This document shows positions 1 through 59,086 of a stretch of DNA of 64,000 nt, piece after piece. Source of the DNA: Flavobacteriales bacterium. GTDB lineage: Bacteria > Bacteroidota > Bacteroidia > Flavobacteriales_F > PHOS-HE28. The notes under the pieces are model-generated. The model had not been told where the DNA came from. It saw only the letters and a list, made by a program, of their open reading frames with translations, and ran no database searches. The first letter of the stretch is position 1. Each line of letters begins with the position of its first letter. Location: assembly GCA_016719225.1 (NCBI GenBank), contig JADKAN010000004.1:512167-576166 (forward strand). Direction: 5' to 3'. The position numbers and the translations under genes are program-made.

Positions 1-985
1 AAGCACGGGCTCCCTGATTATTCAGGTGGCTGCTGTTCTTGAAAGCGCTGTCCGGCAATTTCATCATGGAATAGTCGTAGAAATGCAGGTTCGGGTGCCG
101 CTGCTCCAACTCATGGAACAGCGCCGTGATCTCCTCATAGTTGGAAACACCCTCCATTTCACTCCAATGTTGCGGGGTGTAGACCACCAGGATCTGACGG
201 TCCGGACGGCTTGCCACAAGCTCTTCGAACCTCTCTATACGTTCCTTCGGAGCACTGAACAGCAGGAAGGCGTCCAAATATTTCAATTTGTAACGGTCCT
301 CGGCGGATACCGCCGCTTTCACATTCCCCACATCACTTTGCAGCTTGAGCCGCATCTCGATGGAACGTTGGCGCGCAGCTACTTGGCTGGCCAGCAATTT
401 GGGTGACGCGGAACGCTCGGTGAACAACCCCCCTTTTTCGGATATACGTGCGTTCTTGTCCTCGACGTCCTCTTCGTCACTATTGCCCTTGCGCAGGAAT
501 TCCTGCACTGCTCCGAAGTAGCGGAGACCAGGGACAAGGAAACGGGTCTCAAAGCGACCATTGCGCTCCAGGTATTCACGCACTCCGGGAAGGCCGATGT
601 TGGGCACGAAGGTCGCCGCGTCAATGGTGTGGTCCGGCGCGTGCACGAAGAAGCGATGGTTGAACTCCACCAATACCGCGCCTTTCCGGGGCTTTGCCAG
701 TTCAACCTCCATCAGGAACTCGGTGACGTCGAAATTGCATTTCTCCATCGCGTAGTTCCACACCGTGGGGCCCAGGCTGTCCGGGATGAAGGAGCTGCGC
801 GCTTTGGAACTGCCGAACACAGGGATCTCCTCGGGATCCTCGGACTCGATCAATCGCTTGACCTTCGACGGATTGGATGCCGGGTCATCGAAGATCGCCC
901 ATCGCTGCAGCAACGTATCAAAACCCAACGCCACTACCCAAAAAGCGATGATGAAAAAAGCTGAACTGCGTATCAAGGTGCGCAT
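1..985 (-). CDS. MBOAT-partner protein (AlgJ/AlgX/DltD-like periplasmic acyl-transfer accessory protein), partial - its C-terminus lies beyond the window start
   Basis: Hand translation of the minus strand from the ATG at 985..983 gives an open frame through position 2: MRTLIRSSAFFIIAFWVVALGFDTLLQRWAIFDDPASNPSKVKRLIESEDPEEIPVFGSSKARSSFIPDSLGPTVWNYAMEKCNFDVTEFLMEVELAKPRKGAVLVEFNHRFFVHAPDHTIDAATFVPNIG... The N-terminal hydrophobic stretch reads as a membrane anchor. It is missing from the ORF track only because it has no stop inside the window. It starts 8 nt after the MBOAT stop, in the same order as algI-algJ. Confidence 0.55.
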   Translation of the reverse strand, partial: MRTLIRSSAFFIIAFWVVALGFDTLLQRWAIFDDPASNPSKVKRLIESEDPEEIPVFGSSKARSSFIPDSLGPTVWNYAMEKCNFDVTEFLMEVELAKPRKGAVLVEFNHRFFVHAPDHTIDAATFVPNIGLPGVREYLERNGRFETRFLVPGLRYFGAVQEFLRKGNSDEEDVEDKNARISEKGGLFTERSASPKLLASQVAARQRSIEMRLKLQSDVGNVKAAVSAEDRYKLKYLDAFLLFSAPKERIERFEELVASRPDRQILVVYTPQHWSEMEGVSNYEEITALFHELEQRHPNLHFYDYSMMKLPDSAFKNSSHLNNQGARA

Positions 986-992
986 CGCCGGT

Positions 993-2384
993 TCAGAATT
1001 GGAAATAGATGAATTGGTTCCTCGCGTCGGAACCGAATGCAAAGATTACCACCAGCATGCACACAACATAGACGTTGTCGTATTTGAAACGCATGCTCCG
1101 GGGGAAAAGGGTAGTGGCAACAGCCAACGCGGCGAAGAACAGGCCCATGACCATTTCCGCGAAGTAGCCGGAGCGCAGGTCCGCCATGGACAGCCGGAAA
1201 TCCGTGAAGATGTGCTGTATCACCGCGAAGGCATCAGTGACATTGTTGCGGAAGAAGATGCAGGAGAATATGATCAACGAGCTGTTCCAGACCGTCCAGA
1301 AAACACGCATCGGCGCGGAATTGTTGAACGGTTGCAGCGGTTTGATCCGGATGTACATGCGCTGTAGCACCATGGCAATACCGTGGAACAGGCCGAACAT
1401 CACGAAGTTCCATGTGGGCCCGTGCCAGAAACCGATGAGCACGAAGGTGCAGATGGTAATGATCCACGCCTTCCCCGGTGAGCTACGTATCCAAGGTCGA
1501 TAGACATAATCGCCGATCCATGTAGTGAGCGAGATATGCCAACGGGCCCAAGAAGCATTGAGATTGGTAGTGAGGAATGGCCTGTTGAAGTTGTCCATCA
1601 GCCTAACGCCCATGAGCCTGGCGGAGCCCATCGCAATGTCCGTGTAACCGCTGAAGTCACAGAAGAGCTGCACGGTGAACAGGACCGCGGCGATGGCGTA
1701 TTGGAGTCCGGAGGCACTGGGTACGTTGCTGTACAATTGGTTCACGAAGGGTGCCAAATTGTCGGCGACCACCACTTTTTTGAAGAAGCCCAATAAGATC
1801 TTATTGATCGCGTATTTGATGTCATCCTTCGTGGCTGGCACGTTGTTCCGCAATTGTGGGATCAAATGGCCTGCCCGTTCGATCGGACCAGCAACGAGCT
1901 GTGGGAAATAGCAGACGTAGAGTGCGAAATAGCCGAAGTGACGCTCGGCCTTGTCCTTGCCTTTATAAACGTCGAACGTGTAACTCAGGCTTTGGAAGGT
2001 ATAGAATGAAATACCCAGTGGGAGGATGATGTCCAGGACGGGCGAATCATAGAACACGTTGAATTTACCCAACAACACCTCCGTGTTGTAGGCAAAAAAG
2101 TTCATGTATTTGAAAAAGAACAGCAGGCCTAAGTTGACCACAAGGCTTGCTGCCATGTACCGCCGCTTGGTGCGCTGGTCCTTGGCATCCTCCATCAACA
2201 TGGCCGCCCAGTAGTCCACCAACGTGGAAATGAGCATGAAAACCGCGAAGAACGGTTTCCAGCACATGTAGAAGTAATAGCTGACCACCAGCAGCATCAC
2301 CCACCGGTATCCCTTTGGGATCAGGTGGTACAGCACCAGCACCAAAGGGAGGAAAAGAAGATAGTCTACAGAGTTGAACAGCAT
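993..2384 (-). CDS. MBOAT family membrane-bound O-acyltransferase (AlgI/DltB-like)
   Basis: 463 aa polytopic membrane protein with the characteristic MBOAT N-terminus (MLFNSVDYLLFLPLVLVLYHLIPK...) and the conserved His-containing core (FWHGPTWNF; WRRWHISLTTW). Confidence 0.85.
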   Translation of the reverse strand: MLFNSVDYLLFLPLVLVLYHLIPKGYRWVMLLVVSYYFYMCWKPFFAVFMLISTLVDYWAAMLMEDAKDQRTKRRYMAASLVVNLGLLFFFKYMNFFAYNTEVLLGKFNVFYDSPVLDIILPLGISFYTFQSLSYTFDVYKGKDKAERHFGYFALYVCYFPQLVAGPIERAGHLIPQLRNNVPATKDDIKYAINKILLGFFKKVVVADNLAPFVNQLYSNVPSASGLQYAIAAVLFTVQLFCDFSGYTDIAMGSARLMGVRLMDNFNRPFLTTNLNASWARWHISLTTWIGDYVYRPWIRSSPGKAWIITICTFVLIGFWHGPTWNFVMFGLFHGIAMVLQRMYIRIKPLQPFNNSAPMRVFWTVWNSSLIIFSCIFFRNNVTDAFAVIQHIFTDFRLSMADLRSGYFAEMVMGLFFAALAVATTLFPRSMRFKYDNVYVVCMLVVIFAFGSDARNQFIYFQF

Positions 2385-2390
2385 GGCTTC

Positions 2391-3596
2391 CTAGGGGCCT
2401 TTACTCAATAGGTTGCGGAGCGCTATTACGTGATCTTCGAGCATAGAGTTCCATCCAAGATCTTTTCGTGCCCTCTCCCGGCTAGCATCGCGCATGGATC
2501 CCCATGCTTGACGGTCGGAAAGAAGCTTTCCGATACGAGCAGCCATACCTAGTGCATCATCCGCCAGCATGATCTCCACGTCAGACATCAGATCGAGTCC
2601 TTCAACACCTATGGAAGTCGTGGCGCAAGGTAATCCCCGATACAACGCGGTGATCACCTTTACCTTCGTTCCACTTCCGAAACGCAGGGGCGCAATGAAG
2701 ACTTTGCTCTTCCGGTAGAACGGCTCCAAGTCATCCACGAAGCCACGCAGAACGGCTCCCGGTGAACGCTTCACCGCTAATTGCAATGATTCGTCCGCAC
2801 CGCGGCCGATAATGTCCATTGTCAATTCCGGATACTTTTTTTTCAGGATGGGCCAAACATCGTTCAGGAACCAGATCAACCCATCCGCATTGGCAGGCCA
2901 GCTTAAAGTGCCGACGTAGAGCAAGTTGTTCAGCGCCTCATCAAAACGCAGGACCGGCGCATCCAGTCCGCTGTCGTCGCCCAAATGGTAGGTGGTGTGG
3001 AATTTACTCTTTGGCACTCCTGCCTTTACCAGTTCCTCTTGATCGTTCGGGGCAGCAAGGACCAGATCCGCTCGTTCGCAGGACTTTACCTCGAAATGTT
3101 TCACACGCCGCGACTCGATCTCCAGCACGATCCGCTCAGGCAGGTTCTTTGCGACTGTCCGCGAGCGTTCCCACATAACGAACTCTGCGTTATGCTGGTG
3201 AAGTATGACAGGCACCTTGACGTTTTTCGGCACGTAAGGGAAGACCTCCAAATGGTCGACCAGCACGAGGTCAGCTTTTCCGATGGCCTCTTCTGCCGCC
3301 CGGTGCAATTCCACGTCCGCATTGCGGTAAACGTTCAACGTGGGGGAAGAGACCATACTCTTCAGGAAGTTCAATGCCGTCCGTGGGCGCTCCACCGGTA
3401 AGGCGTGCACCGCTGACAATGGTAATGCACGCTTGAATGCATCCAAATGCTTCACATCGTCACCTTTCAACGGTGCGATCAACGTCACATCGAAATGCTG
3501 GGCCAAATGCTGAATGAACCGCCATGACTTTATTACGCCCCCGCTTTGTGGTGGGTATGGCAATTGGTTGGTTATGAAAACCAAACGATCCCTCAT
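2391..3596 (-). CDS. Glycosyltransferase family 4 (GT-B fold)
   Basis: 401 aa. The C-terminal half carries the GT4 EX7E-like region (KVFIAPLRFGSGTKVKVITALYRGLPCATTSIGVEGL). It sits in the operon with wza/wzc. Confidence 0.8.
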   Translation of the reverse strand: MRDRLVFITNQLPYPPQSGGVIKSWRFIQHLAQHFDVTLIAPLKGDDVKHLDAFKRALPLSAVHALPVERPRTALNFLKSMVSSPTLNVYRNADVELHRAAEEAIGKADLVLVDHLEVFPYVPKNVKVPVILHQHNAEFVMWERSRTVAKNLPERIVLEIESRRVKHFEVKSCERADLVLAAPNDQEELVKAGVPKSKFHTTYHLGDDSGLDAPVLRFDEALNNLLYVGTLSWPANADGLIWFLNDVWPILKKKYPELTMDIIGRGADESLQLAVKRSPGAVLRGFVDDLEPFYRKSKVFIAPLRFGSGTKVKVITALYRGLPCATTSIGVEGLDLMSDVEIMLADDALGMAARIGKLLSDRQAWGSMRDASRERARKDLGWNSMLEDHVIALRNLLSKGP

Positions 3597-3602
3597 GGTC
3601 TA

Positions 3603-5873
3603 TCAGACAGCACGATTCCAGTTGTAGCGGAAAAAGTCGAAGAACCCCAACCGCTTTTCCCCTTTTTTCTTTGCCAGACCGAACCACGGCAGCGGTTTGT
3701 CCATGATGCCGTCCAGCACGAACATGAGCGGCGGAAGCTGGCCATTGGCGCGCGACATGCCCAATTTCTCAAGGTCGCCTTTGGATGTGGTGCCCGGCTG
3801 GCAAACCACCAGCGCACGGTCGAGCGAGGCCACTTGCGGAGTAATGGCCAGTGCGTCACCGTTAGAGCCTTCGATGATCACGAAGGCAGTGCCCTCCTCC
3901 TGTGCCCGTGATCGGATCGCGCTCAGGGAGATCCCCTTGGCAGCGATAATAGAAAGACCAGCGGGTGCGCCAGTTTGGCGCGGGGTAGCTTCAGTCTCCT
4001 GCACCAGCATTACGCGACTGCCACGCTGTGCCAACATCCAGGCCAAACGGGCCGCAGTGGCTCCTACTGCCTCTTTCCCTCCAGCACCGCAGACCATATC
4101 GAGCTCGGGGCCGGTGGTGTGTGCAGTCTCTATAAGTGCAGCCAGCTTGGCAATTTCCACATAGGCGGGACTGGCCGGATTGGTCAACAGCCCACCCGGA
4201 TCCTTGTGTGTCGTATAGGGTATGCGAGCGGCGAGCGGAACGTCCGGCATAGCCTTCGCCAAGGTCGAAGCACCGGTTATCTTATCACTGAACAAGGACT
4301 TAATAATGAGGTACCCCAAAGGTGCCAACAGCGCCAACATCACCGCAACCGCCAGCAGGATCACTATGTCGGGGAAGAACGGGTCCATGTCCGTTATATA
4401 AGCCGGTGTGGTCACGTAGACCTCCGGTGCAAGCGCCGCGAACTGAACACGCAGGTTGCTCAAGCGCGTCAGAAGATCGGTGTTCACGGCTTCCTGTGTG
4501 CGCTGGTCGCGTTCCCTGTCGGTCAAGGTCCTGTCCAGTTTGGGTATTTCCCCCTGCTGGGCCATTAAGGTCCTTCGTTGCAAGTCCACATTGTCCAGGC
4601 TGATCCGGGTGTTGGCCTTGAAGCTTTCCACCGAGCTCAGGATGTTCTCCCGTTGCTGGTCCAACAGCCGTACCATCCGGTTGAAGCTGGGATTAGCGGT
4701 CTTGCCCTCCTCTCGAAGCACGGAAATGTCGCTCTGTAATGCTGCGTATTTCGTGGTCATATCGTTGAGCAGGGGATCAGAAATGCCGTAAGCTTTGGGA
4801 CTGGATGGCTTGGCACTGTCCCCGCTGCGCAGCAGCTTCACCAAATTGTCGTAATAATTGGTCTGGACCACCAACGATTCGCGCTGGGCGTCCAATGACT
4901 TCAAACCTTCCTGAAGCAAAATGGTGGCATGTTCCATGTTGGTGACATTGGCCTCCGTCTTGAACTTTTCAAGCAGATCGCTCGTGGAATTGAGCTGGCC
5001 GGTGTTGCGGGTGATCTCACCTTCCAACATGGTAATGGTCTTGGCCAGTTCGGTCTTCTGCTCTTCCATATGCAGTGAAGTGTACTCTTCACCGATGCCG
5101 TTCAAAATGTCCAACACCTTGGGCTTTGGCGCTGCTGTGAGCGTAACGTTCACCGTTGTGGCCTCCGCTACGGTCAGTTCCCCGAGGATCGAGCCCATTA
5201 ACCCCAGCGTAACGCCGTGTGGGTCGTACAGGATGAAGCCGTAATTCTCCACGTCATCGCCTTCCAAAGGCAATTTGCTTTTCATCACCCTGGTGATGCG
5301 CACGCGGGCGCTATCCAGCTTGATCCATTCACCGAATTTGCCGTCCTGCTCCAGCTCGATCTCAAGATCGTCCGGACCGTATTTGCCGTCCCCCACAAGC
5401 TTGAAATTGTCTCCTTGCACATCATGCAGGTAAAATCCTACGCCATAGGGTACATGCACCACATTGTGCACGGATGAGGTATCGAGTTCGACTTGGATCG
5501 GTGTATCCTTATAGACCTCCCAATCCAGGAAAAAACCTTCCTGCACGTACTTATTACGCAGACCGAGCCGATCCACCACACGGCTGATAATGGGCTCTGA
5601 CGTGATGCGCAATTGTTCGTTGGAGTAGTAGTTCTTATCGGTTTTTGCCACGGGCTGCGTGGGTTGCACCATGCGGTTCGGGTCGTCGTGCCGCATGGGT
5701 GTAGCGATCAAAATGCTGGTGCTGCCTGAATACATGGGCTGCACGATGATCATGATCACCACCACAAGTGCCAGCAAGGCCAAGCCCGCTATACCCAGAA
5801 GTGGCCATGCACGCAGGTACTTTCCGAGGAAGGCCTTCAGGTCCGTGTCCTCATTCAAGTTCGTTCCGGTCAT
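3603..5873 (-). CDS. Polysaccharide co-polymerase / chain-length determinant (Wzc/GumC-like, PCP-2) with a degenerate C-terminal ATPase/kinase domain
   Basis: 756 aa. N-terminal TM segment, a Wzz-like periplasmic region, long coiled-coil, a second TM segment, and a C-terminal P-loop-like region (VCGAGGKEAVGATAARLA) with no Ser/Thr after the Lys and no C-terminal Tyr cluster. Confidence 0.75.
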   Translation of the reverse strand: MTGTNLNEDTDLKAFLGKYLRAWPLLGIAGLALLALVVVIMIIVQPMYSGSTSILIATPMRHDDPNRMVQPTQPVAKTDKNYYSNEQLRITSEPIISRVVDRLGLRNKYVQEGFFLDWEVYKDTPIQVELDTSSVHNVVHVPYGVGFYLHDVQGDNFKLVGDGKYGPDDLEIELEQDGKFGEWIKLDSARVRITRVMKSKLPLEGDDVENYGFILYDPHGVTLGLMGSILGELTVAEATTVNVTLTAAPKPKVLDILNGIGEEYTSLHMEEQKTELAKTITMLEGEITRNTGQLNSTSDLLEKFKTEANVTNMEHATILLQEGLKSLDAQRESLVVQTNYYDNLVKLLRSGDSAKPSSPKAYGISDPLLNDMTTKYAALQSDISVLREEGKTANPSFNRMVRLLDQQRENILSSVESFKANTRISLDNVDLQRRTLMAQQGEIPKLDRTLTDRERDQRTQEAVNTDLLTRLSNLRVQFAALAPEVYVTTPAYITDMDPFFPDIVILLAVAVMLALLAPLGYLIIKSLFSDKITGASTLAKAMPDVPLAARIPYTTHKDPGGLLTNPASPAYVEIAKLAALIETAHTTGPELDMVCGAGGKEAVGATAARLAWMLAQRGSRVMLVQETEATPRQTGAPAGLSIIAAKGISLSAIRSRAQEEGTAFVIIEGSNGDALAITPQVASLDRALVVCQPGTTSKGDLEKLGMSRANGQLPPLMFVLDGIMDKPLPWFGLAKKKGEKRLGFFDFFRYNWNRAV

Positions 5874-5882
5874 TCGCTGGGG

Positions 5883-6767
5883 CTATTTTTTCAACACGGC
5901 GTAAACACTCACGATCGAAACCAAGAAGGTCAGCACATTGACGACCAGGTTCGGATCCCTGCCTGAGTACATCCGTCTCTTTAGCGGGTCAACGATCACC
6001 ACGTCGTTCGGCTCCAAGTAGAAGTGGGGATCCGCCAGAACGTTCTGATCGTTGAGGTCCATGTTGTACAGATGGTTGGTGCCGTCCCGTGAGCGCATGA
6101 CGCGGATGCGCGAGCGGTCCGCAAGCACAGTTAGATCACTGGCCATGGCCAGTCCTTCAAGCACGTTCACTTGGTTGTTATACACCGGGTATCGTCCCGG
6201 GCGGTTCACTTCACCCACCACCGATATGTTGAAGTTGAGCATGACCACCTTCACCGAGGCGTCCGAATATAATCCATTGGCCAAAGACAAGATCGCCGCT
6301 TCCGCTTCCGGGATGGTCATTCCCTCCACTTTGACCGGTCCTATCTCGGGCAGTGTGATGTTCCCCTGCGGATCAACAGTATGGCCGATCAGGTAGGGGT
6401 GCTGCACCGAGCGGTAGAGGTCCATGTCCTGCAAGGTGGTCTGCGGCACGATGTCCTGCACGAGTTGCGAGTGGCCCACGGTGACCATGAGAATGTCATC
6501 CTTGTGGATGGAGAATGTCGGCGGTTGGGGTGGCCAGGTCTTATCCACAAGAGCGTCCCATGGGACCCGCGCATCCTTATCCTGCAGCAGCACGACCTTC
6601 TTGTTGCCCACGCAACCGCCGAGCAAAGCAGCTGCCAAGACCAAGCCCAGCATCGCCGGAAATTTCGGGATGACACTCCCGCATACCTTGCCAAAGGCTG
6701 ACCAGTATGGCCAAAAACCCTTCATTCGCTTCGATGTCAGTAAATTCCGGTTCCTGCTATGCAACAT
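5883..6767 (-). CDS. Polysaccharide export outer-membrane lipoprotein Wza (BexD/CtrA family, SLBB domains)
   Basis: 294 aa. Lipoprotein-like N-terminus (MLGLVLAAALLGGC), a poly_export region (DILMVTVGHSQL...) and SLBB-like repeats. The true start may be an internal Met (MKGFW.. or MLGLV..). It is divergent from the plus-strand operon. Confidence 0.8.
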   Translation of the reverse strand: MLHSRNRNLLTSKRMKGFWPYWSAFGKVCGSVIPKFPAMLGLVLAAALLGGCVGNKKVVLLQDKDARVPWDALVDKTWPPQPPTFSIHKDDILMVTVGHSQLVQDIVPQTTLQDMDLYRSVQHPYLIGHTVDPQGNITLPEIGPVKVEGMTIPEAEAAILSLANGLYSDASVKVVMLNFNISVVGEVNRPGRYPVYNNQVNVLEGLAMASDLTVLADRSRIRVMRSRDGTNHLYNMDLNDQNVLADPHFYLEPNDVVIVDPLKRRMYSGRDPNLVVNVLTFLVSIVSVYAVLKK

Positions 6768-6902
6768 CCGTTATCCCTTTTGGTGAGGCCTCTTTTGTAG
6801 AAAAGAGGATCCGGCGGCAAATATGGGGGCAACTTCCCCTGCTTGTAAAACGTAACAAGAGTTTAATTCAACAAGCGGGCGATATTTGTCGCCGGATCCA
6901 TC

Positions 6903-9640: not shown

Positions 9641-10547
9641 GACCACGACACGCTTGCCGGACCTCATGCTGGTAGGCGCAGCGAAGAGCGGCACTACTTC
9701 GATAGCGCACCAGTTCACCCGGCATCCAAGGGTTTTTCTGCCCATGAACAAGAAGGAACCGCACTTCTTCTCGTTCAATGAAGAGCCGCCGCCTTACACC
9801 GATAAAGCGTTCGTGCGCACCTTGGTATGGAAGCTTAAAGACTACGTGGCCCTCTATGTCTCAGCGCCTCCGAATGCCCGGATAGCCGATTGTTCGACCT
9901 CCTATCTTTATCGGCATCATACAGCCGTGCCGCATATCCTACGCACATATGGCTCCAGAGCTGTGGAACTTAATATGAGCGCCATTTTGCGCGACCCAGT
10001 TGAGCGTGCTTATTCCCATTGGCTTTACTTGGTGCGTAACGGACATGAGGACCTTTCCTTCGAAGAAGCGATCGCTCCCGCGACCGTGGAACGCAGAAAG
10101 AAGGAGCGTTGGGGCTTTGATTATTTGGGCTATGGGCTTTATGCTGAAGCAGTTGGGAATTTCACGTCCGCCTTTCCTTCTTTTAAAGTTTACTTACTGG
10201 AGGATCTGAAGGACCTGCAGGGAACGTTCGACGACATTTGCGACCGGGCCGGCCTTGAGCACTTTGAAGTGGAAAAAGTGCAATCGAACCCCGGCGGAAT
10301 TCCCAAGAGCCGCTGGCTGGTGCGCACCATCCGCCGAAACCCGATCGTCCGCTCCTTTAGCCATATGCTGCCTTCCGGCATGCGCAACTCGGTACGCGCC
10401 AAGCGGGATGGCATGTTAAAGCAGGCGCTGGACAGACCCGAAATGCCAAGGGCCGCGCGCGATATACTGAACGCTTATTACCGTGCAGACGTGGAGCGTC
10501 TTTCTGCTACAATCGGGCGTGACCTTGGCCATTGGTGTTCCAAATGA
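9621..10547 (+). CDS. Sulfotransferase (PAPS-dependent, Sulfotransfer_1/3-like) - ST1
   Basis: 5'-phosphosulfate-binding loop LMLVGAAKSGTTS near the N-terminus and a 3'-phosphate-binding motif ILRDPVERAYSHW. 308 aa. Overlaps the wzx end by 20 nt. Confidence 0.8.
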   Translation: MLRSTSETTTRLPDLMLVGAAKSGTTSIAHQFTRHPRVFLPMNKKEPHFFSFNEEPPPYTDKAFVRTLVWKLKDYVALYVSAPPNARIADCSTSYLYRHHTAVPHILRTYGSRAVELNMSAILRDPVERAYSHWLYLVRNGHEDLSFEEAIAPATVERRKKERWGFDYLGYGLYAEAVGNFTSAFPSFKVYLLEDLKDLQGTFDDICDRAGLEHFEVEKVQSNPGGIPKSRWLVRTIRRNPIVRSFSHMLPSGMRNSVRAKRDGMLKQALDRPEMPRAARDILNAYYRADVERLSATIGRDLGHWCSK

Positions 10548-11464
10548 GCGAGCTCAATCTGCCTAAATGCCTGTTCGTAGGCACCGCTAAGGCCGGGACC
10601 ACCACCATCGAACATGCATTAAAGGCCCATCCAGGAGTCGGTATTCCGCGGAAGGAAACGTTTTTCTTCGACCACGAACTCATGGGCAATGGGCGGTTGC
10701 CATATCCCAAACAGCGGGACACGGATACCATCGTGAAGTCGGAAGCGGAATACCGCGGCCTCTATTCCGGTGCGGCACTGGTAGGTAAGACCGCTGTGGA
10801 GATCGGCACCGGCTACCTCTACCATCATGCAGTGGCCATCCCGAAGATCAAGGACCTTTTGGGTGCGGATACCCGGATAGGCATCGTACTGCGCGATCCG
10901 GTGGAACGCGCATGGTCCTCTTACATGCACTTCGTGAAGGACACGCACGAAACCCTGGGCTTCCGGGAATCCATTGCCGCAGAACCTCTGCGCACTGCCG
11001 AGAATTGGGATTTCATGTGGCACCACATCGCCATGGGGCGCTACGCTGACCAAGTGGCGGCGTATGTCAAGGCTTTCCCGAACACCCGCGTATTTATTTT
11101 CGAAGATCTACGTGCTGACGCCGATGGCTTTATGCGCGGGGTGTTCGATCTGGTGGGCGTGCCCCCTGTGGACCTGCCACCCGTAAAAGCGCAGAATCCT
11201 TCAGGCCAACCGAAATATCGGGGCCTTCAGCGACTGATAACTACGGATAATCCTATCAAAGGCCTGTTACGCCCATTAGTGCGCATGTTGGTTCCTGAGG
11301 AGCGCAGGCGCAAGGCAAGGAAGTTCGTGAAAGAGAAGAATCTCACCACGTCCGGGGGGCTTCAACCCGAGGACCGCACTTGGCTTAGGGATATTTACCA
11401 TGAGGATGTAAAGCGGCTTTCCGTAACCTTGGGCCAAGATCTGTTCGTGAAATGGCGCTGGTAA
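10544..11464 (+). CDS. Sulfotransferase (PAPS-dependent) - ST2
   Basis: CLFVGTAKAGTTT loop and VLRDPVERAWSSY motif. ATG at 10544 overlaps the ST1 stop as ATGA. Paralogous to ST1 but divergent. Confidence 0.8.
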   Translation: MSELNLPKCLFVGTAKAGTTTIEHALKAHPGVGIPRKETFFFDHELMGNGRLPYPKQRDTDTIVKSEAEYRGLYSGAALVGKTAVEIGTGYLYHHAVAIPKIKDLLGADTRIGIVLRDPVERAWSSYMHFVKDTHETLGFRESIAAEPLRTAENWDFMWHHIAMGRYADQVAAYVKAFPNTRVFIFEDLRADADGFMRGVFDLVGVPPVDLPPVKAQNPSGQPKYRGLQRLITTDNPIKGLLRPLVRMLVPEERRRKARKFVKEKNLTTSGGLQPEDRTWLRDIYHEDVKRLSVTLGQDLFVKWRW

Positions 11465-12795
11465 GCCCCTCTTCTTCCACGGCTTCTGAAAAGCAGTTGC
11501 CTTGGCCCTTCCGCTACAAGGGATTGTCCTTGGGCATTCTCACGTTCATGGTGACCATTGTTTGGCGTGTGCTCACGGTGAGCCACTTCACCTTGGTGAT
11601 CGGTACCATAGAAGTGGCCCTGTTCGCATTGCTCATGGTTTGGGTTGTATGGCGGCTGGTCCAACGGTGGATGGCGGATGATTGGGGCATCAATGGTTTT
11701 GAGATCTACGTCCTTCTCCTGATCATTCTGCCGTTGGGTTCAGCCTTCGGCGCCCGGAAAGAGTTTGGCCAGCCGTTGATCTGGGGCATCATCGCTTTCA
11801 AGGATTATTACCTATTGCTCGGCGTACTTGCGGTATATCATTGGTTGCGCATGGGATGGGTCACCCTGAAGCAGTTGGAAAAGGCCATGCTTATCATGTC
11901 TTGGATCTGCTTGATCTATTTCTACTTCGCAACACTCTTCATAAACCCCGCACCGTATCAGGACACGCCACTCGCCGGGGCTAACGAAGTAAAAGGCGGT
12001 GGGGTGTATTACCGCTTCAACATGGCCGCCATGTATTTCGGTGCCATCTATTACTCTGCACGTGCATTCAAACGCGAAACGTGGTTCGATCTCTTCTACG
12101 CAATGCTCTTCGCAGCGTACGTCGTGATCTTCCGGCTGGATCGCACCTCCATGGCAGTTACCGCTTTAGGCATGGCGGGAGTGGTTCTTTTCCATGTTCC
12201 CCTGAAGCGTATCGTGCGGGCGATGATGGTGGTACTGATCCCATTGATCTTCGGCGTGGTATTGATCTTCCTGCTTGCTCCCAGCAAGGTGAAGCAGTAC
12301 GAGGACATGTTCACAGACGCCATCCATACGGTGATGGGCACTTCAGGCGGAGAAGCCGAAGTGGGTGTTCGCACTTTGGAGATCGCTATCGCGGACCGCC
12401 AGGTGGCCAAGCACCCTTGGTTGGGCAACGGGCGGATCAGCCACACTTGGAATGAGACCGGATATGAACAGTGGCTCGGCTTCTTTTTCCCGGCGGACGT
12501 GGGAATGTTGGGTCTAACATTCATTTATGGATATCCAGGAATGGTGTTCCTCTACCTCCTCTTCGCCGTAGCCGCCATTTACATGCTCCGCGTAAAGGGG
12601 CGTAACGATGACCTGTTCTTCATCACTTGCCAGTTCCTCCTATTGGCGTTGTTCCTGGATTCGCTCACCAACGGCCAATTGACGCAGAACCCTGGCCAAG
12701 CCTTGCTGCTCATGGGTGTGATGCACTATTACTCGCGGATCAGCCCTGCAGTAGTGCAACAAGGGGCGCTGCTTTCCGCACCGGCCTTGGCCTGA
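11452..12795 (+). CDS. Wzy-type polysaccharide polymerase / O-antigen ligase-like membrane protein
   Basis: 447 aa, more than 10 predicted TM helices, a large loop before the last helices. Sits between the sulfotransferases and beside wzx. The family call rests on context and topology only. Confidence 0.55.
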   Translation: MALVSPSSSTASEKQLPWPFRYKGLSLGILTFMVTIVWRVLTVSHFTLVIGTIEVALFALLMVWVVWRLVQRWMADDWGINGFEIYVLLLIILPLGSAFGARKEFGQPLIWGIIAFKDYYLLLGVLAVYHWLRMGWVTLKQLEKAMLIMSWICLIYFYFATLFINPAPYQDTPLAGANEVKGGGVYYRFNMAAMYFGAIYYSARAFKRETWFDLFYAMLFAAYVVIFRLDRTSMAVTALGMAGVVLFHVPLKRIVRAMMVVLIPLIFGVVLIFLLAPSKVKQYEDMFTDAIHTVMGTSGGEAEVGVRTLEIAIADRQVAKHPWLGNGRISHTWNETGYEQWLGFFFPADVGMLGLTFIYGYPGMVFLYLLFAVAAIYMLRVKGRNDDLFFITCQFLLLALFLDSLTNGQLTQNPGQALLLMGVMHYYSRISPAVVQQGALLSAPALA

Positions 12796-13533
12796 TCAAC
12801 GCAGGTAGAGCCAGAAGATCTTGCGAAGTACGTTCAAGCCACGGTAGACGGGCATGGCCGACGCAGGCATCTTTATGTGGTCCCAGGTAGGAGGGAACGT
12901 GTAGCCGAACTCCTCCATGTACGGGCCGAACACGAATTTAGCTCGCCGCTTCGATGCATCAGTGTCGAAGTATTCCGTGAAATGCTTGCCCTCCTTGGCC
13001 GTCTTGTTGCCTACAGGCAGCGGACGGGTCTGTTCCACGCCAAGCTTTCTCAGGGCATCGGCAAAATCCTCTTGGAGGTTTTCGTAGCGCACAACCTTAT
13101 CGAACTTTTTGTGGTCCAAAATGCTCCAACTGGCGTAAGGGATCTTGTGGTTGCGCATGAACCAAGTAGAGAACGATTGGTTCTTTCCAATGATCTCCGA
13201 ATGGCTCCGTTTGTTCCACCAAAGCATGATGTGCTTGCGCAGGAAACCGTGTTGGATCTTGTTCGCCTCCGCGTTGCTGTAGCGGTCCTCATGGTCGCTG
13301 CGCACCTTGAAATAAGTGCTCACGGTGATGTCCATCGGGTTGCGCAGGCCGGAGATCACGCGGTACTTTTTCTGCTCGGCGTCAGCCGCTTTCATATAGT
13401 CCGTGCGATACAGCGCATGCTTGAAGCAGAACTCTCGGGCTTCGTACTGGTCCGTCAGCTCGCGTGAAATGGCGGTACTGGCTGTTTGTGGGAGGTTCAC
13501 AAAGACGAACCGGTGCTTGTCGCTTATGACCAT
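12796..13533 (-). CDS. Sulfotransferase family protein (Sulfotransfer_2/3-like, a different family from ST1/2/4/5) - ST3
   Basis: 245 aa. N-terminal FVFVNLPQTASTAIS resembles the family-2 PKxGST PAPS loop, and GLRNPMDITVSTYFK resembles the RxPxxRxxS 3'-phosphate motif. Opposite strand to its neighbours. Confidence 0.55.
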   Translation of the reverse strand: MVISDKHRFVFVNLPQTASTAISRELTDQYEAREFCFKHALYRTDYMKAADAEQKKYRVISGLRNPMDITVSTYFKVRSDHEDRYSNAEANKIQHGFLRKHIMLWWNKRSHSEIIGKNQSFSTWFMRNHKIPYASWSILDHKKFDKVVRYENLQEDFADALRKLGVEQTRPLPVGNKTAKEGKHFTEYFDTDASKRRAKFVFGPYMEEFGYTFPPTWDHIKMPASAMPVYRGLNVLRKIFWLYLR

Positions 13534-13988
13534 GTGTGCGTTTTGGAGGCGAATAGTTGCTGTTGCGGAAATGCTTTTCGGCCCCGAAGTAAGGCCTTAT
13601 AGGAATGAATACCGGCTTTTGACCATGCTTCATCCCGATATTTGTATCGGCGTCCTTCAACGCGACACCTGACCAGATGGTTCTCCAACGCACCTTGCCT
13701 TTCCATTTCCGTTGGCTTTTTGCCGGACCTGGAAGTAAGGATCGTGCTTCAGGGCTCGGCCCGAGCGACTGGAGTTCCGGACCACTGACAGAAGTGGAAC
13801 CCGGACGTCCCAGCGGAGTCACCTCAAGATCCAAATTCGTGCGACTGAAGGACAGGTCAGTGGTTGAAGCTGAAGTTACCTTACGAAACAATGGGACGTT
13901 GATCCCCGTAGAAAAAACCTTGTATGCCATTCACCAGTTCACGTTGCCGCTATCCGCTCATGCTATGTCCCATAAGGGCACCTAAGCG

Positions 13989-15026
13989 TTGCCGGCGATC
14001 CGCCATTATCATCAGTGCATGACCAACGCCCGGCACATGCCGCACAATCGGACCGACAAAGCTGAGTTCTGCCCTGATTTCCTCGTCGTTGGCGTGGTAA
14101 AAGGAGGCACTACCGCACTCTACAACCTGCTGGACCGCCATCCCGGCATTCATTTGCCACCGATAAAGGAGACCAATCATTTTTCGCGGGGTGACATGCG
14201 ACCTGCGGATTTTGCCCGCGAGTATGCGCTGGATGTACGCATGGACCCTGCGAAGTACATCCGGGACGGGATGAACGAAGTGGTACACATAGCGCATGTG
14301 GACGACTCCTCGGACTATGCGGCGCTTTTCAGCAAGGCCACTCCCGGACAAGTGCTGGGCGAGGTCTGTCCTTCATACGCCATATGCCCTTCCGCCGCTG
14401 CGGCCATCCATACTGCTAGGCCATCCGCACAAATTTTCTTCATGCTTCGCGATCCGGTGCAACGTGCCTGGTCGCAGTACATCATGAACCTGCGTGAGGG
14501 GAAAACCCTTGAAAAGGATTTCCTGAAAGAAGTGGAACGCGATGCCAAGCAGGCCAAGACCGGCTGGGGCGTGAACCACCAGTACTTGGCACTGGGCATG
14601 TATGCGGAACAGGTGGAACGTTACTTGCAACTGTTCCCCAAGGAACAGGTACATGTGCTTTTGCATGAGCGGTTCAAGAAGGATCCTGCGGCCACAATGG
14701 CCCAGGTTTTCGCTGCTATCGGCGTTGAACCCTTGGTGGACATGGACACCTCCGGAAAGTTCAACGAAGCCGCTGTACCGCGCAATGCCGTGCTGAACCG
14801 ACTGCTGGTGCGCAGCGGAGCTATCAGCGCAATTAAGGCCCTAGTACCCCGCGATCTTCGTGGCGGTTTCAAGGAGATGCTCTATTCCAAAAAGGACATG
14901 CCCACGCTGCCCAAGGATCAGGCATCAGCGCTATGGGAAACATATGCGCCGGATGTTGACCGGCTTTCACAATTGATCGGTATGGACCTGCGCCAATGGT
15001 GGGGGGTGAAGAAAGCAAAGGCATGA
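13989..15026 (+). CDS. Sulfotransferase (PAPS-dependent) - ST4
   Basis: FLVVGVVKGGTTAL loop and MLRDPVQRAWSQY motif. 345 aa; the true start may be an internal Met (for example near 14019). Confidence 0.8.
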   Translation: MPAIRHYHQCMTNARHMPHNRTDKAEFCPDFLVVGVVKGGTTALYNLLDRHPGIHLPPIKETNHFSRGDMRPADFAREYALDVRMDPAKYIRDGMNEVVHIAHVDDSSDYAALFSKATPGQVLGEVCPSYAICPSAAAAIHTARPSAQIFFMLRDPVQRAWSQYIMNLREGKTLEKDFLKEVERDAKQAKTGWGVNHQYLALGMYAEQVERYLQLFPKEQVHVLLHERFKKDPAATMAQVFAAIGVEPLVDMDTSGKFNEAAVPRNAVLNRLLVRSGAISAIKALVPRDLRGGFKEMLYSKKDMPTLPKDQASALWETYAPDVDRLSQLIGMDLRQWWGVKKAKA

Positions 15027-16042
15027 ATACAGGTATCGGACACGTTTTCGTGGTTGGGAATTCGCGCAGCGGCACTACCATGATGTTGCGGGTGATGAAC
15101 AACCATTCGCAGGTTCATGGGATCAATGAGCCGCATTTCTATGGTACCTACTGGGCTCCTGCGGATGATGGGAAACCACTGCCGGAGGCTGATGCAAAGG
15201 AGTTATTCATCAAGCTCATCACGCGCCAACGCGATGGTTTCTTCGCCGAGGTGACTCCCGGCAAGTTCGATGCTGAGGTGCAACGCATGTATGATGAACT
15301 GCCGGCCGGTGCCGATCGCAAGGACGTCTATGCTGGTTTCATGGCCTATGAAACGAAGCTGAACGGGAAGAACATAGCCTGCGAGAAAACGCCCCAGAAC
15401 ATTTTCTACATTGACGAGATCCAAAGGCATTTCCCGGGCGCCAAGACCATCGTTATGTTCCGCGATCCCCGCGCCGTGCTGCTGTCGCAAAAGCGGAAAT
15501 GGATGCGCAAGGACCTTGGCATGACCGGTATGCCCGACTCGGAAGTGCGCCGCCTGAGGATGAATTATCATCCGTTCACCATTTCGCGCCTGTGGAATTC
15601 CAGTTTCGATGCGGCCAAGCGTCACAAAGGGAACCCTGACGTGGTAGAAGTCCGTTTCGAGGACCTCACCGGCGACCCTGAAGGCACCATGCGCCGCATA
15701 TGCACCGCCGTAGGTATTCCATTCGAGCCTGCTATGCTGCAAGTGCCACACGCGGGCAGCTCGAGCGCGATGGACGACCCCACTAAAAAGGGGATCCGTA
15801 CCGATAGAGGCAATAGTTGGAAGAAAGGATTGGACGATACCGAAATTGCCATTTGCCAAAGCACGTGTGGCACGCGCATGGCACAACTGGGTTATGGCTA
15901 CGCGGACGTTTCCCCGAGCGCATTGAGCCTTGCCGCTGCTTGGGCCAGCTTTCCCTTCAAACTCGTTGGCGCGTTCGCGCTTAATCTGGGGCGCATGCGC
16001 AACATGGTGAACACACTTCAACGCAGACTGAAACAGGCTTGA
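15023..16042 (+). CDS. Sulfotransferase (PAPS-dependent) - ST5
   Basis: VFVVGNSRSGTTMM loop and MFRDPRAVLLSQK motif. ATG at 15023 overlaps the ST4 stop as ATGA. Confidence 0.75.
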   Translation: MNTGIGHVFVVGNSRSGTTMMLRVMNNHSQVHGINEPHFYGTYWAPADDGKPLPEADAKELFIKLITRQRDGFFAEVTPGKFDAEVQRMYDELPAGADRKDVYAGFMAYETKLNGKNIACEKTPQNIFYIDEIQRHFPGAKTIVMFRDPRAVLLSQKRKWMRKDLGMTGMPDSEVRRLRMNYHPFTISRLWNSSFDAAKRHKGNPDVVEVRFEDLTGDPEGTMRRICTAVGIPFEPAMLQVPHAGSSSAMDDPTKKGIRTDRGNSWKKGLDDTEIAICQSTCGTRMAQLGYGYADVSPSALSLAAAWASFPFKLVGAFALNLGRMRNMVNTLQRRLKQA

Positions 16043-16818
16043 TGAAGCGCGTGAAGCTTTTCGGCCTACCGTTCATAGCCGCCGAGAATCACGATGGCGT
16101 GGTGTCGGAAGTGCTGGCTTGGCCGTTGGAAAAGGAGGAACCGCAGGAGCTGCCGTTGTTGAGCACGCCCAATGTGGACCAAGTGGTGAAGCTCCATCGC
16201 CACGAACATGCGGGTTTGCTTGCTCAGATCGCGAACGCGCGTTTTGTCCTTCCCGACGGGCAACCCATCGTATGGGTGAGCAAACGGAAAAAAGGCAGCG
16301 AACTCCCGGCCCGGCTGGCAGGCAGTGATCTGTTCCCTGCGGTTTGGAATAAGCTCGCCACGAGGAAAGCGCCGATATTCATGGTGCTGGCCAACGATGC
16401 GATCGGGGAAGCGTTGCGGAAAGAGAATCCGGAGATGCACTGGTTGACACCGCCCTTCTATTCCATATCCGACCCCGGAGCGGAAGAACAGGTCGTGACC
16501 TCTGTATTCAATGAGCTCATGGCGCGGCCGGTACCCTTGGTTTTCTTGGGCCTGGGCTTTCCGAAGCAGGAACGTTTGGCACTTGCCTTGATCGAAAGAC
16601 TGAAGACCGCTGCGGTGCCGATGCCATTGTTCCTTTTGCTGGGCGCGTCGTTCGAGTTCCATGCAGGATTGAAGAAGCGTGCCCCCAAGATCTTCCAAAA
16701 GCTCGGCCTCGAATTCTTCCATCGCTTCCTTTCCGAGCCTAAGCGCATGTTCCGCCGCTACTTCGTGGATGACATGGTCTTCTTCAAGCTGGCCCTAAAG
16801 GAACTGCGCGCTTCTTGA
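16039..16818 (+). CDS. WecB/TagA/CpsF family glycosyltransferase (GT26; UDP-ManNAc(A)/GlcNAc-type transferase to the lipid-linked acceptor)
   Basis: 259 aa. Motifs TPNVDQVVK...FVLPDGQPIVWVSK match the GT26 TPNPE...DG.GVVW pattern. ATGA overlap with ST5. Confidence 0.75.
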   Translation: MMKRVKLFGLPFIAAENHDGVVSEVLAWPLEKEEPQELPLLSTPNVDQVVKLHRHEHAGLLAQIANARFVLPDGQPIVWVSKRKKGSELPARLAGSDLFPAVWNKLATRKAPIFMVLANDAIGEALRKENPEMHWLTPPFYSISDPGAEEQVVTSVFNELMARPVPLVFLGLGFPKQERLALALIERLKTAAVPMPLFLLLGASFEFHAGLKKRAPKIFQKLGLEFFHRFLSEPKRMFRRYFVDDMVFFKLALKELRAS

Positions 16819-33138: not shown

Positions 33139-33314
33139 TCTGGAAGGATCCGAGGTGACTGCATTCCTCGAGCTTTCAGCGAGGCGGGAACGTCGAGTTG
33201 CATTTATCCGTGTTGATCAGCGTTTATGATCGTCCCGCTGTATGTCGGCAGAAATTCATCCGTGGTCGGCAATCTTCAGCCCACCTATCTTTGCCACGCG
33301 TTCTTTTCCATTGA

Positions 33315-58222: not shown

Positions 58223-58226
58223 TGGC

Positions 58227-59053: not shown

Positions 59054-59086
59054 CCATCGCATTCCGTATCAGCGCCGCCGGGAACA

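Follow-up and report, generated by a model that had tools for sequence, protein, structure and literature searches.

A stretch of 64,000 nucleotides (64 kb; the window) from the genome of an uncultured Flavobacteriales bacterium of wastewater holds the larger part of a cluster of approximately 19.8 kb and 17 genes, which, judged by its gene content, probably encodes a Wzx/Wzy-dependent route to a sulfated, O-acylated extracellular or capsular polysaccharide. Among species-level representatives, the one nearest to the PHOS-HE28-related host is an activated-sludge MAG of PHOS-HE28 (Flavobacteriales), which agrees with the assignment to Bacteroidota made in an earlier reading of the same DNA (the original prediction). 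The cluster comprises a WcaJ-like primer, GT4 and GT26 glycosyltransferases, Wzx, Wzy, a polysaccharide co-polymerase, Wza, an MBOAT protein with an SGNH-fold partner, and five sulfotransferases (ST1–ST5). Since the five sulfotransferase genes adjoin sulfate-donor genes in an export cluster, it is very probable that the host produces a slime or capsule with heavy sulfation. Such products have rarely been documented in bacteria, and none yet in Bacteroidota. The cluster type is already known elsewhere (synechan xss; Vibrio sulfated CPS); the interest of this one lies in the phylum, in the 5:3 ratio of sulfotransferases to transferases, and in its bearing on unexplained sulfated polymers in sludge.

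The original prediction had placed the locus at 1–16818. This extent had to be revised, as the locus runs past the left edge of the window. On the source contig, just beyond this edge, cysC, cysD, and cysN belong to the same operon as the export genes. A divergent intergenic (promoter) region at 6768–6902 lies between the export and assembly operons, and genes within an operon are spaced by start/stop overlaps or gaps of 6–9 nt. The right-hand end of the cluster is the GT26 gene, because acylation and export genes, and not the DeoC gene, come after WecG in rearranged relatives. No regulator-like ORF was found within the cluster in the ORF list or by family searches. A second divergent intergenic region of 485 bp (13534–14018) separates ST5 from ST3, and its part 13667–13883 has no alignment to the closest species. 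A 182-codon ORF at 13382–13930 (minus strand) was rejected as a gene: it had no family match and was not called by the gene caller.

Family matches were found for Wza, the WbaP/WcaJ-like primer, Wzx, GT4, GT26, and MBOAT, as originally predicted. The initiating polyprenyl-phosphate hexose-1-phosphate transferase of the WbaP/WcaJ type (6903–8279, plus strand) matched Bac_transf with 204.6 bits and TIGR03025 EPS_sugtrans with 361.8 bits (cut-off 295.6); the score with the WcaJ model TIGR03023 was 377 bits (cut-off 410.75). The GTG start of the Wzx flippase gene (8276–9640, plus strand; Polysacc_synt 68 bits, cut-off 28.2; also MatE and MurJ) overlaps the stop of the WbaP gene (GTGA). The Wza/OPX outer-membrane polysaccharide export protein is encoded at 5883–6767 on the minus strand, with its start at 6653 or 6725 according to gene callers (Poly_export 51.1 bits, cut-off 28; SLBB_2 32.1 bits). 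The GT4 glycosyltransferase gene lies at 2391–3596 on the minus strand, its start possibly at 3506 by gene calls (Glyco_trans_1_4 76.9 bits; TIGR03087 stp1-like 4e-42, under the cut-off). The ATG of the GT26 gene of the WecG/TagA/CpsF family (16042–16818, plus strand; PF03808 119.6 bits; TIGR00696 98 bits) overlaps the stop of ST4 (TGATG).

For two further components the matches were weaker. The Wzy-like repeat-unit polymerase (11452–12795, plus strand) has approximately 11 hydrophobic segments, and its place between ST2 and ST5/ST3 is kept in related loci, but its Wzy_C match (23.6 bits, E 4.9e-5) is below the cut-off of 31.7 and the TIGR04370 match is weak. The Wzc-like co-polymerase (3603–5873, minus strand) matched the Wzc model NF008568 at 7.8e-12 and, in the PDB, structures of E. 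coli Wzc at 7e-8, over the periplasmic region and TM2 only; no Pfam match was obtained at E ≤ 0.01 (Wzz 0.013). It has two hydrophobic segments, at 19–56 and 495–529. Its C-terminal cytoplasmic domain of 230 residues gave no kinase match and no C-terminal tyrosine cluster was seen in its sequence; the product would be a co-polymerase, though probably not a Wzc-type kinase.

The MBOAT-family membrane O-acyltransferase (993–2384, minus strand) was identified by PF03062 (80.7 bits), with a match to the DltB model TIGR04091 (8e-44) under the cut-off of that model. Its neighbour is acylX (1–985, minus strand), a protein predicted to be extracytoplasmic and to have the SGNH fold and its catalytic Ser and His, from which the window start removes the last 16 codons; the full-length protein has 344 aa and one N-terminal membrane anchor. 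The fold was assigned by structure prediction, with OatA-C, PatB, and DltD as the closest matches, and no Pfam or NCBIfam family match was found. The acylX family was found in these clusters only. In comparison with the PatA/PatB, OatA, AlgI/AlgJ/AlgX, and DltB/DltD pairs, acylX is without sequence-family membership, and AlgJ was not among its top structural matches. The predicted acylation pair was retained, and the label "AlgJ-like" was dropped.

The genes cysC, cysD, and cysN, also on the minus strand, are not part of the window; they are located 55 nt beyond acylX (about 2.9 kb further left). Their products passed the curated NCBIfam cut-offs: CysC scored 230 (cut-off 163), CysD 457 (195), and CysN 598 (590), so that the means of PAPS synthesis are encoded in the operon. 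In the 64-kb window itself, neither cysQ nor a sulfate transporter was found.

The five ORFs named in the original prediction were recovered at their coordinates, with the quoted motifs in the translations, and no membrane or hydrophobic segments were detected in any of them. ST1 (9621–10547, plus strand) belongs to a 3rnl/heparan-sulfate 3-OST-like family. Its Pfam score (18.4 bits) is under the cut-off of 22, but PDB 3rnl was matched over the full length at 7.9e-31 and 3-OST-1 at 6.5e-4. Its paralogue ST2 (10544–11464, plus strand), whose start overlaps the ST1 stop, is identical to ST1 at 108 of 280 positions and matched Sulfotransfer_3 with 41.6 bits (cut-off 27). ST3, of the same family (14019–15026, plus strand; longest ORF from 13989), scored 65.3 bits with Sulfotransfer_3 (cut-off 27) and 45 bits with Sulfotransfer_1. 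The start of ST4 (15023–16042, plus strand) overlaps the ST3 stop; this protein falls into the Sulfotransfer_3 family (NoeE/CurM-ST/TPST-like) with 107.5 bits (cut-off 27), matches NoeE at 2e-7 and the CurM ST at 1e-4, and its family has 11,543 cluster representatives. All four have a 5'-phosphosulfate loop (K/R-x-G-T-T) and a 3'-phosphate motif (R...S): VGAAKSGTTS and ILRDPVERAYS in ST1, VGTAKAGTTT and VLRDPVERAWSS in ST2, VGVVKGGTTA and MLRDPVQRAWSQ in ST3, and VGNSRSGTTM and MFRDPRAVLLSQ in ST4. By these motifs and matches, ST1–ST4 are predicted to be clear PAPS-type sulfotransferases.

Each of these proteins has a conserved candidate catalytic base behind its first strand-loop-helix, with a role assigned by homology. 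In the alignment of ST1–ST3, the 5'-PSB Lys (K, G, T, T columns), the Glu of KExxHF/KExxFF, and the 3'-PB Arg/Ser are invariant. This Glu aligns with the ExHFF Glu of 3-OST-1 and 3-OST-3, which we take to be the catalytic base of heparan-sulfate 3-OST. In the ST4 family, E36, H38, R147, and D148 are invariant, RSGTT and S155 are near-invariant, and E36/H38 would be the candidate base.

ST5 (12796–13533, minus strand) had been described as Sulfotransfer_2-like. This holds for the family score (PF03567, 26.2 bits, cut-off 22; E 1.1e-5; profile positions 4–223 of 252), which most close homologues share as a precomputed Pfam match, for the 3'-phosphate motif (LRNPMDITVS), and for the sulfotransferase fold; it does not hold for the 5'-PSB loop (LPQTASTA), where Gln occupies the Lys/Arg site here as in each of the 13 close orthologous loci. 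As the basic 5'-PSB residue is missing, ST5 was classed as a divergent relative with putative activity. The refuting conditions attached to the original prediction (matches to non-sulfotransferase P-loop families, no conserved catalytic base, no route to PAPS) were all checked, and none of them overturned it.

For comparison, 80 related loci were used. They were the best of at least 561 stretches that matched in the species-representative genomes of GTDB, for the most part MAGs of Bacteroidota. Species-level Flavobacteriales MAGs have kept the gene order, and every one of the five sulfotransferases has a positional orthologue in about a dozen species-level MAGs, with identity down to approximately 61%. 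Among cultured bacteria, Olleya namhaensis DSM 28881, Xanthomarina sp. F2636L, and Mesoflavibacter sp. have clusters of this type in smaller form. The dN/dS values of 0.03–0.15 across the five genes (0.05–0.10 for ST1) indicate purifying selection. Five or more sulfotransferase ORFs occur in 23 of these best 80 loci (of at least 561), which suggests that the design is common in uncultured Bacteroidota, though uncharacterised; the rarity emphasised in the original prediction has to be tempered in this respect.

The following order of steps is proposed; like the acceptor sugars, it is inferred. In the cytoplasm, CysD/CysN and CysC would produce first APS, then PAPS. The WcaJ/WbaP-type transferase would load hexose-1-phosphate onto undecaprenyl phosphate, and GT4 and GT26 would lengthen the primed lipid to a short repeat, probably of approximately three sugars. 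The five soluble cytoplasmic sulfotransferases, of three families, may then add sulfate to distinct positions of the lipid-linked repeat; because PAPS is cytoplasmic, they would have to act before flipping. With only three transferases in the cluster, the repeat would be very short unless more transferases are encoded elsewhere, so any estimate of sulfates per repeat, and with it the number of sulfated positions, is uncertain. The unit would be flipped by Wzx and polymerised by Wzy. On the periplasmic side, MBOAT and its membrane-anchored SGNH partner would attach O-acyl groups, of a kind that we infer likewise, to the polymer, and the co-polymerase and Wza would export it.

Several other explanations were weighed against this reading. 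It seems highly improbable that the five ORFs belong to P-loop enzymes of another kind and that the polymer carries no sulfate: kinase matches span only approximately 100 residues compared to approximately 160 for sulfotransferases, the RxPxxRxxS-type 3'-phosphate motif, which kinases do not have, occurs in all five ORFs, the ST1–ST3 family profile matches PDB 3rnl at 2e-76 (3-OST-3A1 2.6e-20, NDST1 1e-17), and PAPS genes are present in cis. It is rather unlikely, though to be taken seriously, that a sulfated polysaccharide is made with fewer than five sulfotransferases acting on it, ST5 in particular being inactive, regulatory, or directed to another acceptor (glycolipid, protein, small molecule). 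The loop of ST5 is PQTAST, whereas PRTGS[ST] occurs in a minority of the more distant relatives; its fold scores are moderate, it stands alone on the opposite strand, and it is absent from rearranged relatives that keep ST1–ST4 (L018, L020, L022, L023, L024, L034). On the other hand, ST5 with PQTAST occupies the same position in 13 related loci of other assemblies (L008–L016, L025, L028) at dN/dS 0.06–0.11, and the 3'-PB Arg/Ser and the candidate base His39 are invariant across 72 homologues, which would not be expected of a decaying pseudo-enzyme.

We also regard it as unlikely that cysC-cysD-cysN serve ordinary assimilatory sulfate activation, maybe as the only, housekeeping copy of the genome, and merely adjoin the cluster. 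PAPS-reducing organisms do need CysC for assimilation, and most of the 80 related loci have no cys genes within 10 kb; however, the genes here follow the acylation genes on the same strand with gaps of 55 nt and smaller, and no cysH, sir, or cysQ was found beside them. The linkage recurs in 11 of the 80 loci, where cysCDN is at most 10 kb away from a sulfotransferase cluster; the gene orders differ, and Cryomorphaceae, Xanthomarina, and Mesoflavibacter are included. One database protein (P0212) joins a match to the SGNH protein with an APS-kinase domain (PF01583), consistent with conserved adjacency. Moreover, the export/acylation/PAPS operon is identical, letter for letter over 9,478 bp, to that of a genome with approximately 80–86% identity in the flanks. 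One breakpoint falls near 6729, a short way into the longest Wza ORF, and the PAPS genes are exchanged together with the export and acylation genes in a single recombination block. There is a considerable chance, somewhat short of even, that the polymer stays bound to the cell, be it as a capsule, an O-antigen-like LPS side chain, or a surface-layer glycan, instead of being released as an exopolysaccharide. All of these are products of Wzx/Wzy clusters, which are indistinguishable in this respect by sequence, and the co-polymerase has no recognisable kinase domain. Wza with a two-TM co-polymerase, however, is typical of capsule and EPS export and not of O-antigen, and no WaaL-type ligase was found in the cluster besides the Wzy-like protein; a capsule would be entirely plausible.

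Among known enzymes, animal heparan-sulfate 3-OST, the NDST domain, and bacterial 3rnl are sequence homologues of ST1–ST3 and share with them the 5'-PSB Lys, the ExHFF Glu, and the 3'-PB Arg/Ser. In animals, the enzymes work in the Golgi lumen on a finished polymer, whereas ST1–ST3 are cytoplasmic and would probably act on the lipid-linked repeat. For 3rnl we know of no substrate, the entry name being only "Sulfotransferase". Rhizobial NoeE and NodH (LPS/KPS sulfation) resemble the present system in bacterial cytoplasmic PAPS-dependent glycan sulfation, but the 2e-7 match of ST4 to the NoeE model is weak (score 30, cut-off 500). The acceptors of NoeE/NodH-type enzymes are lipo-chitooligosaccharides or LPS and not Wzy-polymerised repeats.

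We regard the cluster as an analogue, and not as a member, of the synechan (xss) system of Synechocystis sp. PCC 6803, a Wzx/Wzy cluster for a sulfated extracellular polysaccharide with two repeat-modifying sulfotransferases and a co-polymerase inside (PMC8205485). The xss cluster is cyanobacterial and plasmid-borne, has two sulfotransferases to eight glycosyltransferases (here five to three), and lists no PAPS genes, whereas cysCDN are in cis here; its OPX gene is elsewhere on the chromosome, Wza being inside the cluster here, and its XssQ/R/S regulators (PMC8205485) have no counterpart in the Flavobacteriales cluster. Synechan is also without the MBOAT/SGNH pair. In Pontiella sulfatireligans F21, a non-cyanobacterial isolate of Kiritimatiellae, a sulfated exopolymer was detected, and a single sulfotransferase lies in a glycosyltransferase cluster, putatively for a sulfated glycosaminoglycan-like product, with eight transferases and no reported PAPS genes (PMC7356697). 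The region of Vibrio sp. KMM 8419, for a product structurally proven to be sulfated and O-acylated, resembles the present cluster in containing cysC, cysN, cysD, sulfotransferases (three), and an acyltransferase (PMC11641403). This Gammaproteobacterium differs in ABC-transporter (Kps) export instead of Wzx/Wzy with Wza, and in an 80-gene, 95-kb region with fewer sulfotransferases, compared to the compact 17 genes here (PMC11641403). The combination of cysNDC with sulfotransferases, called a hallmark of sulfated-polysaccharide clusters by its authors (PMC11641403), is present in the Flavobacteriales cluster through CysC/CysD/CysN outside the window.

The polysaccharide cluster occupied positions 1–16818 of the window as a tightly packed gene set, for which the ORF list, the translations and the gene calls of the source contig were concordant. 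The complete cluster comprises 17 genes over ~19.8 kb, its left part lying beyond the window. On the minus strand, it contained an unannotated 344-aa protein truncated at the window start (1–985; SGNH protein, named after its predicted fold), an MBOAT acyltransferase (993–2384), a GT4 transferase (2391–3596), a 756-aa co-polymerase (3603–5873), and the export channel Wza (5883–6767). The plus strand carried a WbaP/WcaJ-type primer (6903–8279), Wzx (8276–9640), the sulfotransferase ORFs ST1 (9621–10547) and ST2 (10544–11464), a Wzy-like protein (11452–12795), the sulfotransferase ORFs ST3 (14019–15026) and ST4 (15023–16042), and a GT26 WecG-family transferase (16042–16818). The fifth sulfotransferase ORF, ST5 (12796–13533), was alone on the minus strand between plus-strand genes. 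Adjacent genes within the operons overlapped by 1–20 nt or were separated by gaps of 6–9 nt. MBOAT, GT4, Wza, the primer, Wzx, and WecG scored above curated thresholds. The Wzy-like protein was recognized by a sub-threshold Wzy_C match, ~11 hydrophobic segments, and its conserved position. For the co-polymerase, matches to Wzc were confined to the periplasmic region and the second membrane segment, and the protein family carried no Pfam annotation in contig look-ups. The 230-residue cytoplasmic tail of the co-polymerase (3603–4290, minus strand) had no BY-kinase match in Pfam, NCBIfam, or PDB, and no tyrosine cluster was seen in the C-terminal sequence.

The right-hand border of the cluster is WecG. 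The genes 3′ of it, encoding DeoC aldolase, DprA, a TonB receptor, and KdsB, were not retained with the cluster in rearranged relatives. The DeoC-family aldolase (16881–17792) was considered as a member and excluded, as these relatives have acylation/export genes after WecG. An ORF of 182 codons overlapping the start of ST5 (13382–13930, minus strand) was also rejected as a gene, because it had no family match, was absent from the gene calls of the source contig, and lies in a region that could not be aligned with the closest species. An Rfam scan detected no RNA elements in the cluster.

Five sulfotransferase ORFs had been claimed in the original prediction from their PAPS-binding motifs, and every ORF and quoted motif was found in its place in the translations. 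Database searches confirmed the assignment for four of them. ST2, ST3, and ST4 matched Pfam Sulfotransfer_3 with 41.6, 65.3, and 107.5 bits, respectively (cut-off 27 bits). ST1 remained below the Pfam cut-off (18.4 bits) but matched the solved bacterial sulfotransferase 3rnl over its full length (7.9e-31) as well as the heparan-sulfate sulfotransferase 3-OST-1 (6.5e-4). ST1 and ST2 were identical at 108 of 280 residues, and ST3 was ~31% identical to each of them. The family profile of ST1–ST3 retrieved 3rnl (2e-76), 3-OST-3A1 (2.6e-20), and the sulfotransferase domain of NDST1 (1e-17) from PDB. Invariant residues in the ST1–ST3 alignment were Lys, Gly, and Thr of the 5′-phosphosulfate-binding (5′-PSB) motif, Lys-Glu of KExx(H/F)F, and Arg and Ser of the 3′-phosphate-binding (3′-PB) motif. 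The Glu of KExx(H/F)F aligned with the Glu of the 3-OST ExHFF motif, the catalytic base of that enzyme. The family of ST4 was very large, with 11,543 representatives of clusters at E ≤ 1e-3; E36/H38 and R147/D148 were invariant in it, and RSGTT and S155 near-invariant. Searches of all five proteins against NCBIfam gave no match except a far sub-threshold one to NoeE for ST4. None of the five contained hydrophobic segments. Comparison of ST1–ST5 with their orthologues indicated purifying selection, with dN/dS of 0.03–0.15, values that are qualitative as dS was saturated.

ST5 exceeded the cut-off of Pfam Sulfotransfer_2 (26.2 vs. 22 bits), but its 5′-PSB loop, PQTAST, has Gln at codon 16 (13486–13488, minus strand) instead of Lys or Arg. 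To our knowledge, all characterised sulfotransferases have a basic residue at this position. The Gln was kept in the ST5 loop of all 13 close orthologous loci, and a PRTGS[ST] loop was present in a minority of more distant ST5 relatives. A single-sequence search against solved structures gave no match, and the best hit of the ST5 profile was SULT7A1, with an E-value of only 0.05 and over the 3′-PB motif; structure prediction was required. Because of the Gln, we class ST5 as a divergent protein of predicted sulfotransferase fold and a putative enzyme. The loop is either a new variant or belongs to a non-catalytic paralogue.

On the source contig, identified as JBATNX010000079.1 of assembly GCA_049290555.1, the SGNH gene was directly followed, on the same strand and outside the window, by genes for CysC (APS kinase), CysD, and CysN. 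All three exceeded their NCBIfam cut-offs (230 vs. 163, 457 vs. 195, and 598 vs. 590, respectively), and unrelated genes (VanZ, GcvH, SprA) were located beyond cysN. A complete PAPS pathway therefore belongs to the export operon. This removes the main objection foreseen in the original prediction, a genome unable to make PAPS, and strengthens its reading of the locus as a sulfated-polysaccharide cluster. No cysQ, cysH, sulfate permease, or sulfatase genes were found in the rest of the 64-kb window. Protein P0212 from a JGI contig (355 aa) matched the SGNH protein at 76% query coverage and also contained an APS-kinase domain (PF01583). This protein, possibly a fusion or the product of two gene calls joined into one, is consistent with conserved SGNH–cysC adjacency.

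A scan for ST3 relatives with one genome per species revealed at least 561 encoding stretches. The best 80 loci were fetched, and their gene content was determined with the window proteins as phmmer queries against all locus ORFs. The order Wzc-Wza | WbaP-Wzx-ST1-ST2-Wzy-ST5(−)-ST3-ST4-WecG was found in about a dozen Flavobacteriales MAGs, with ST3 identity down to ~61%. A rearranged cluster, encoding MBOAT/SGNH and cysCDN along with five or six sulfotransferases, occurred in Cryomorphaceae, Cryomorpha, and open-ocean MAGs, and sulfotransferase ORFs numbered five or six in the MBOAT-Wzx-Wzy clusters of Chitinophagales MAGs. In loci of Chitinophagales and other MAGs (L035–L043), the order MBOAT, ST, Wzx, ST, ST, ST, Wzy, ST, ST was distinct and conserved; here five or six sulfotransferase ORFs of at least 60 bits, sometimes with an ST4-like gene, were contained in 10–13 kb, and no cys genes were present within 10 kb. 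Among the best 80 loci from at least 561 stretches, 42 had at least three sulfotransferase ORFs plus Wzx or Wzy, 11 had two or all three of the cysCDN genes within 10 kb, and 23 had at least five sulfotransferase ORFs. The rarity assumed in the original prediction is real for characterised systems but overstated at the genomic level. Smaller versions were carried by cultured Olleya namhaensis DSM 28881 (L063), Xanthomarina sp. F2636L (L061), and Mesoflavibacter sp. (L076). The nearest species representative was Hirt_18-Q3-R61-65_MAXAC.366 (ST3 90% identical, DNA ~80%), an activated-sludge MAG from Denmark (99% complete) assigned to Flavobacteriales; f__PHOS-HE28; g__PHOS-HE28 (PMC8012365, supplement). 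Members of the family PHOS-HE28 have been described from wastewater and activated sludge, and the G+C content of the family is 59–65% (PMC7214798); that of the window was 54–60%.

The window's genome was also compared with loci L003–L007, from genomes assembled from several other metagenomes. An uninterrupted stretch of 9,478 bp was 100% identical, from the start of Wza to ~190 nt short of the end of cysN (positions 1–6728 of the window plus ~2.7 kb leftward; 5657–15133 in L002), and the flanks on either side had 78–86% nucleotide identity. The block comprised Wza, the co-polymerase, GT4, MBOAT, SGNH, cysC, cysD, and most of cysN. It was identical in L003 and L004, and in L006 up to its rearrangement point in the cysD–cysN region. 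The partner genomes were 99–100% identical to the Hirtshals MAG over WbaP–Wzy and only ~77% over Wza/Wzc. By these identity patterns, three combinations of an assembly arm with an export/acylation/PAPS arm exist. A chimeric contig could also produce such a block; this is unlikely, since both arrangements occurred in more than one assembly, the partner arrangement in at least three independent metagenome assemblies (L003, L004, L006; contigs up to 460 kb) and that of the window on two contigs. The sequence comparison thus points to recent exchange of the export/acylation/PAPS operon between lineages differing at the species level. Such an exchange of arms shows the modular swapping typical of surface-polysaccharide loci, and the shared block supports the treatment of cysCDN as part of the cluster.

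Sulfation would take place on the undecaprenyl-diphosphate-linked repeat ahead of Wzx flipping, since the cytoplasm is where PAPS is both produced and consumed, and the five sulfotransferases are all soluble proteins. MBOAT/SGNH pairs such as PatA/B, OatA, and DltB/D work outside the membrane, so that O-acylation by the MBOAT/SGNH pair would follow flipping. As the cluster encodes a primer and two additional transferases, the repeat probably contains about three sugars, unless other parts of the genome supply more transferases. Five sulfotransferases that are conserved in position and non-redundant would then imply more than one sulfate per sugar. We consider a sulfated polysaccharide, made by the route outlined here, the likely product of the cluster. 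A more tentative reading puts five or six sulfates on the O-acylated repeat of roughly three sugars; if true, this would give a charge density like that of heparin or carrageenan.

Animals, algae, and cyanobacteria are the textbook producers of sulfated polysaccharides. From other bacteria, few structures and even fewer gene clusters have been described (PMC8205485, PMC11641403, PMC7356697). The characterised Wzx/Wzy case is the synechan cluster of Synechocystis, in which two sulfotransferases accompany eight transferases, against five and three in the window cluster; its authors were aware of no further EPS cluster in bacteria that includes sulfotransferases (PMC8205485). The capsule of Vibrio sp. 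KMM 8419 is proven to be sulfated and O-acylated, and its cluster includes cysNDC and three sulfotransferases, but export relies on an ABC transporter and not on the Wzx/Wzy type (PMC11641403). A putative cluster with one sulfotransferase was proposed for Pontiella (PMC7356697). We found no description of a sulfated EPS cluster in Bacteroidota or PHOS-HE28 in the open-access literature. In a metagenomic study of sulfated EPS, Bacteroidetes MAGs were reported to have no sulfotransferase gene and were viewed as degraders (PMC9723792). All components of the cluster belong to known protein families, and its predicted logic follows an established scheme. The cluster is notable for its phylum, the 5:3 ratio of sulfotransferases to transferases, the PAPS genes in the export operon, and the atypical fifth enzyme. 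These data suggest that Bacteroidota, usually regarded as consumers of sulfated glycans, are able to produce them.

Sulfated glycosaminoglycan-like polymers have been measured in granular sludge, with producers and pathways stated to be unknown (PMC10483923), and reference sulfotransferases are stated to give few matches in wastewater work (PMC10483923, PMC7356697). For this question, candidate genes, HMM seeds, and target organisms are now available from the cluster and the many related loci of activated-sludge MAGs. It is conceivable, though we would put it forward only tentatively, that PHOS-HE28/Cryomorphaceae-related Flavobacteriales and some Chitinophagales make hypersulfated polysaccharides and are a substantial source of the unassigned sludge material, with the marine relatives as a bacterial source of sulfated glycans. 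If true, Bacteroidota would be producers and not only degraders of sulfated polysaccharides. The compact design also makes the cluster an attractive set of parts for engineering highly sulfated glycans, as five sulfotransferases from three families are combined with a built-in PAPS supply and only three transferases.

Elsewhere in the window, ORFs 56843–58222 (plus strand, 459 aa) and 58106–59062 (minus strand, 318 aa) had no Pfam match at E ≤ 0.001. Two long minus-strand ORFs (42569–44494 and 43462–45570) overlapped by ~1 kb; one had a single RHS-repeat match, and the other encoded a fusion of a DUF255 thioredoxin with a six-hairpin glycosidase-like domain. Over its full length, the RHS-repeat ORF is unlikely to be a genuine gene. 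Two adjacent large proteins (48393–51065 and 51085–52677, plus strand) carried C-terminal CHU_C type IX secretion signals and PKD and Calx-beta domains, and the T9SS translocon gene sprA lies on the contig close to the left end of the cluster. A SAM riboswitch (33314–33444, plus strand, 74.6 bits) was detected upstream of a methionine synthase split in two overlapping ORFs (33555–34556 and 34553–37288), one with the homocysteine S-methyltransferase domain and the other with the pterin-binding, B12-binding, and activation domains.
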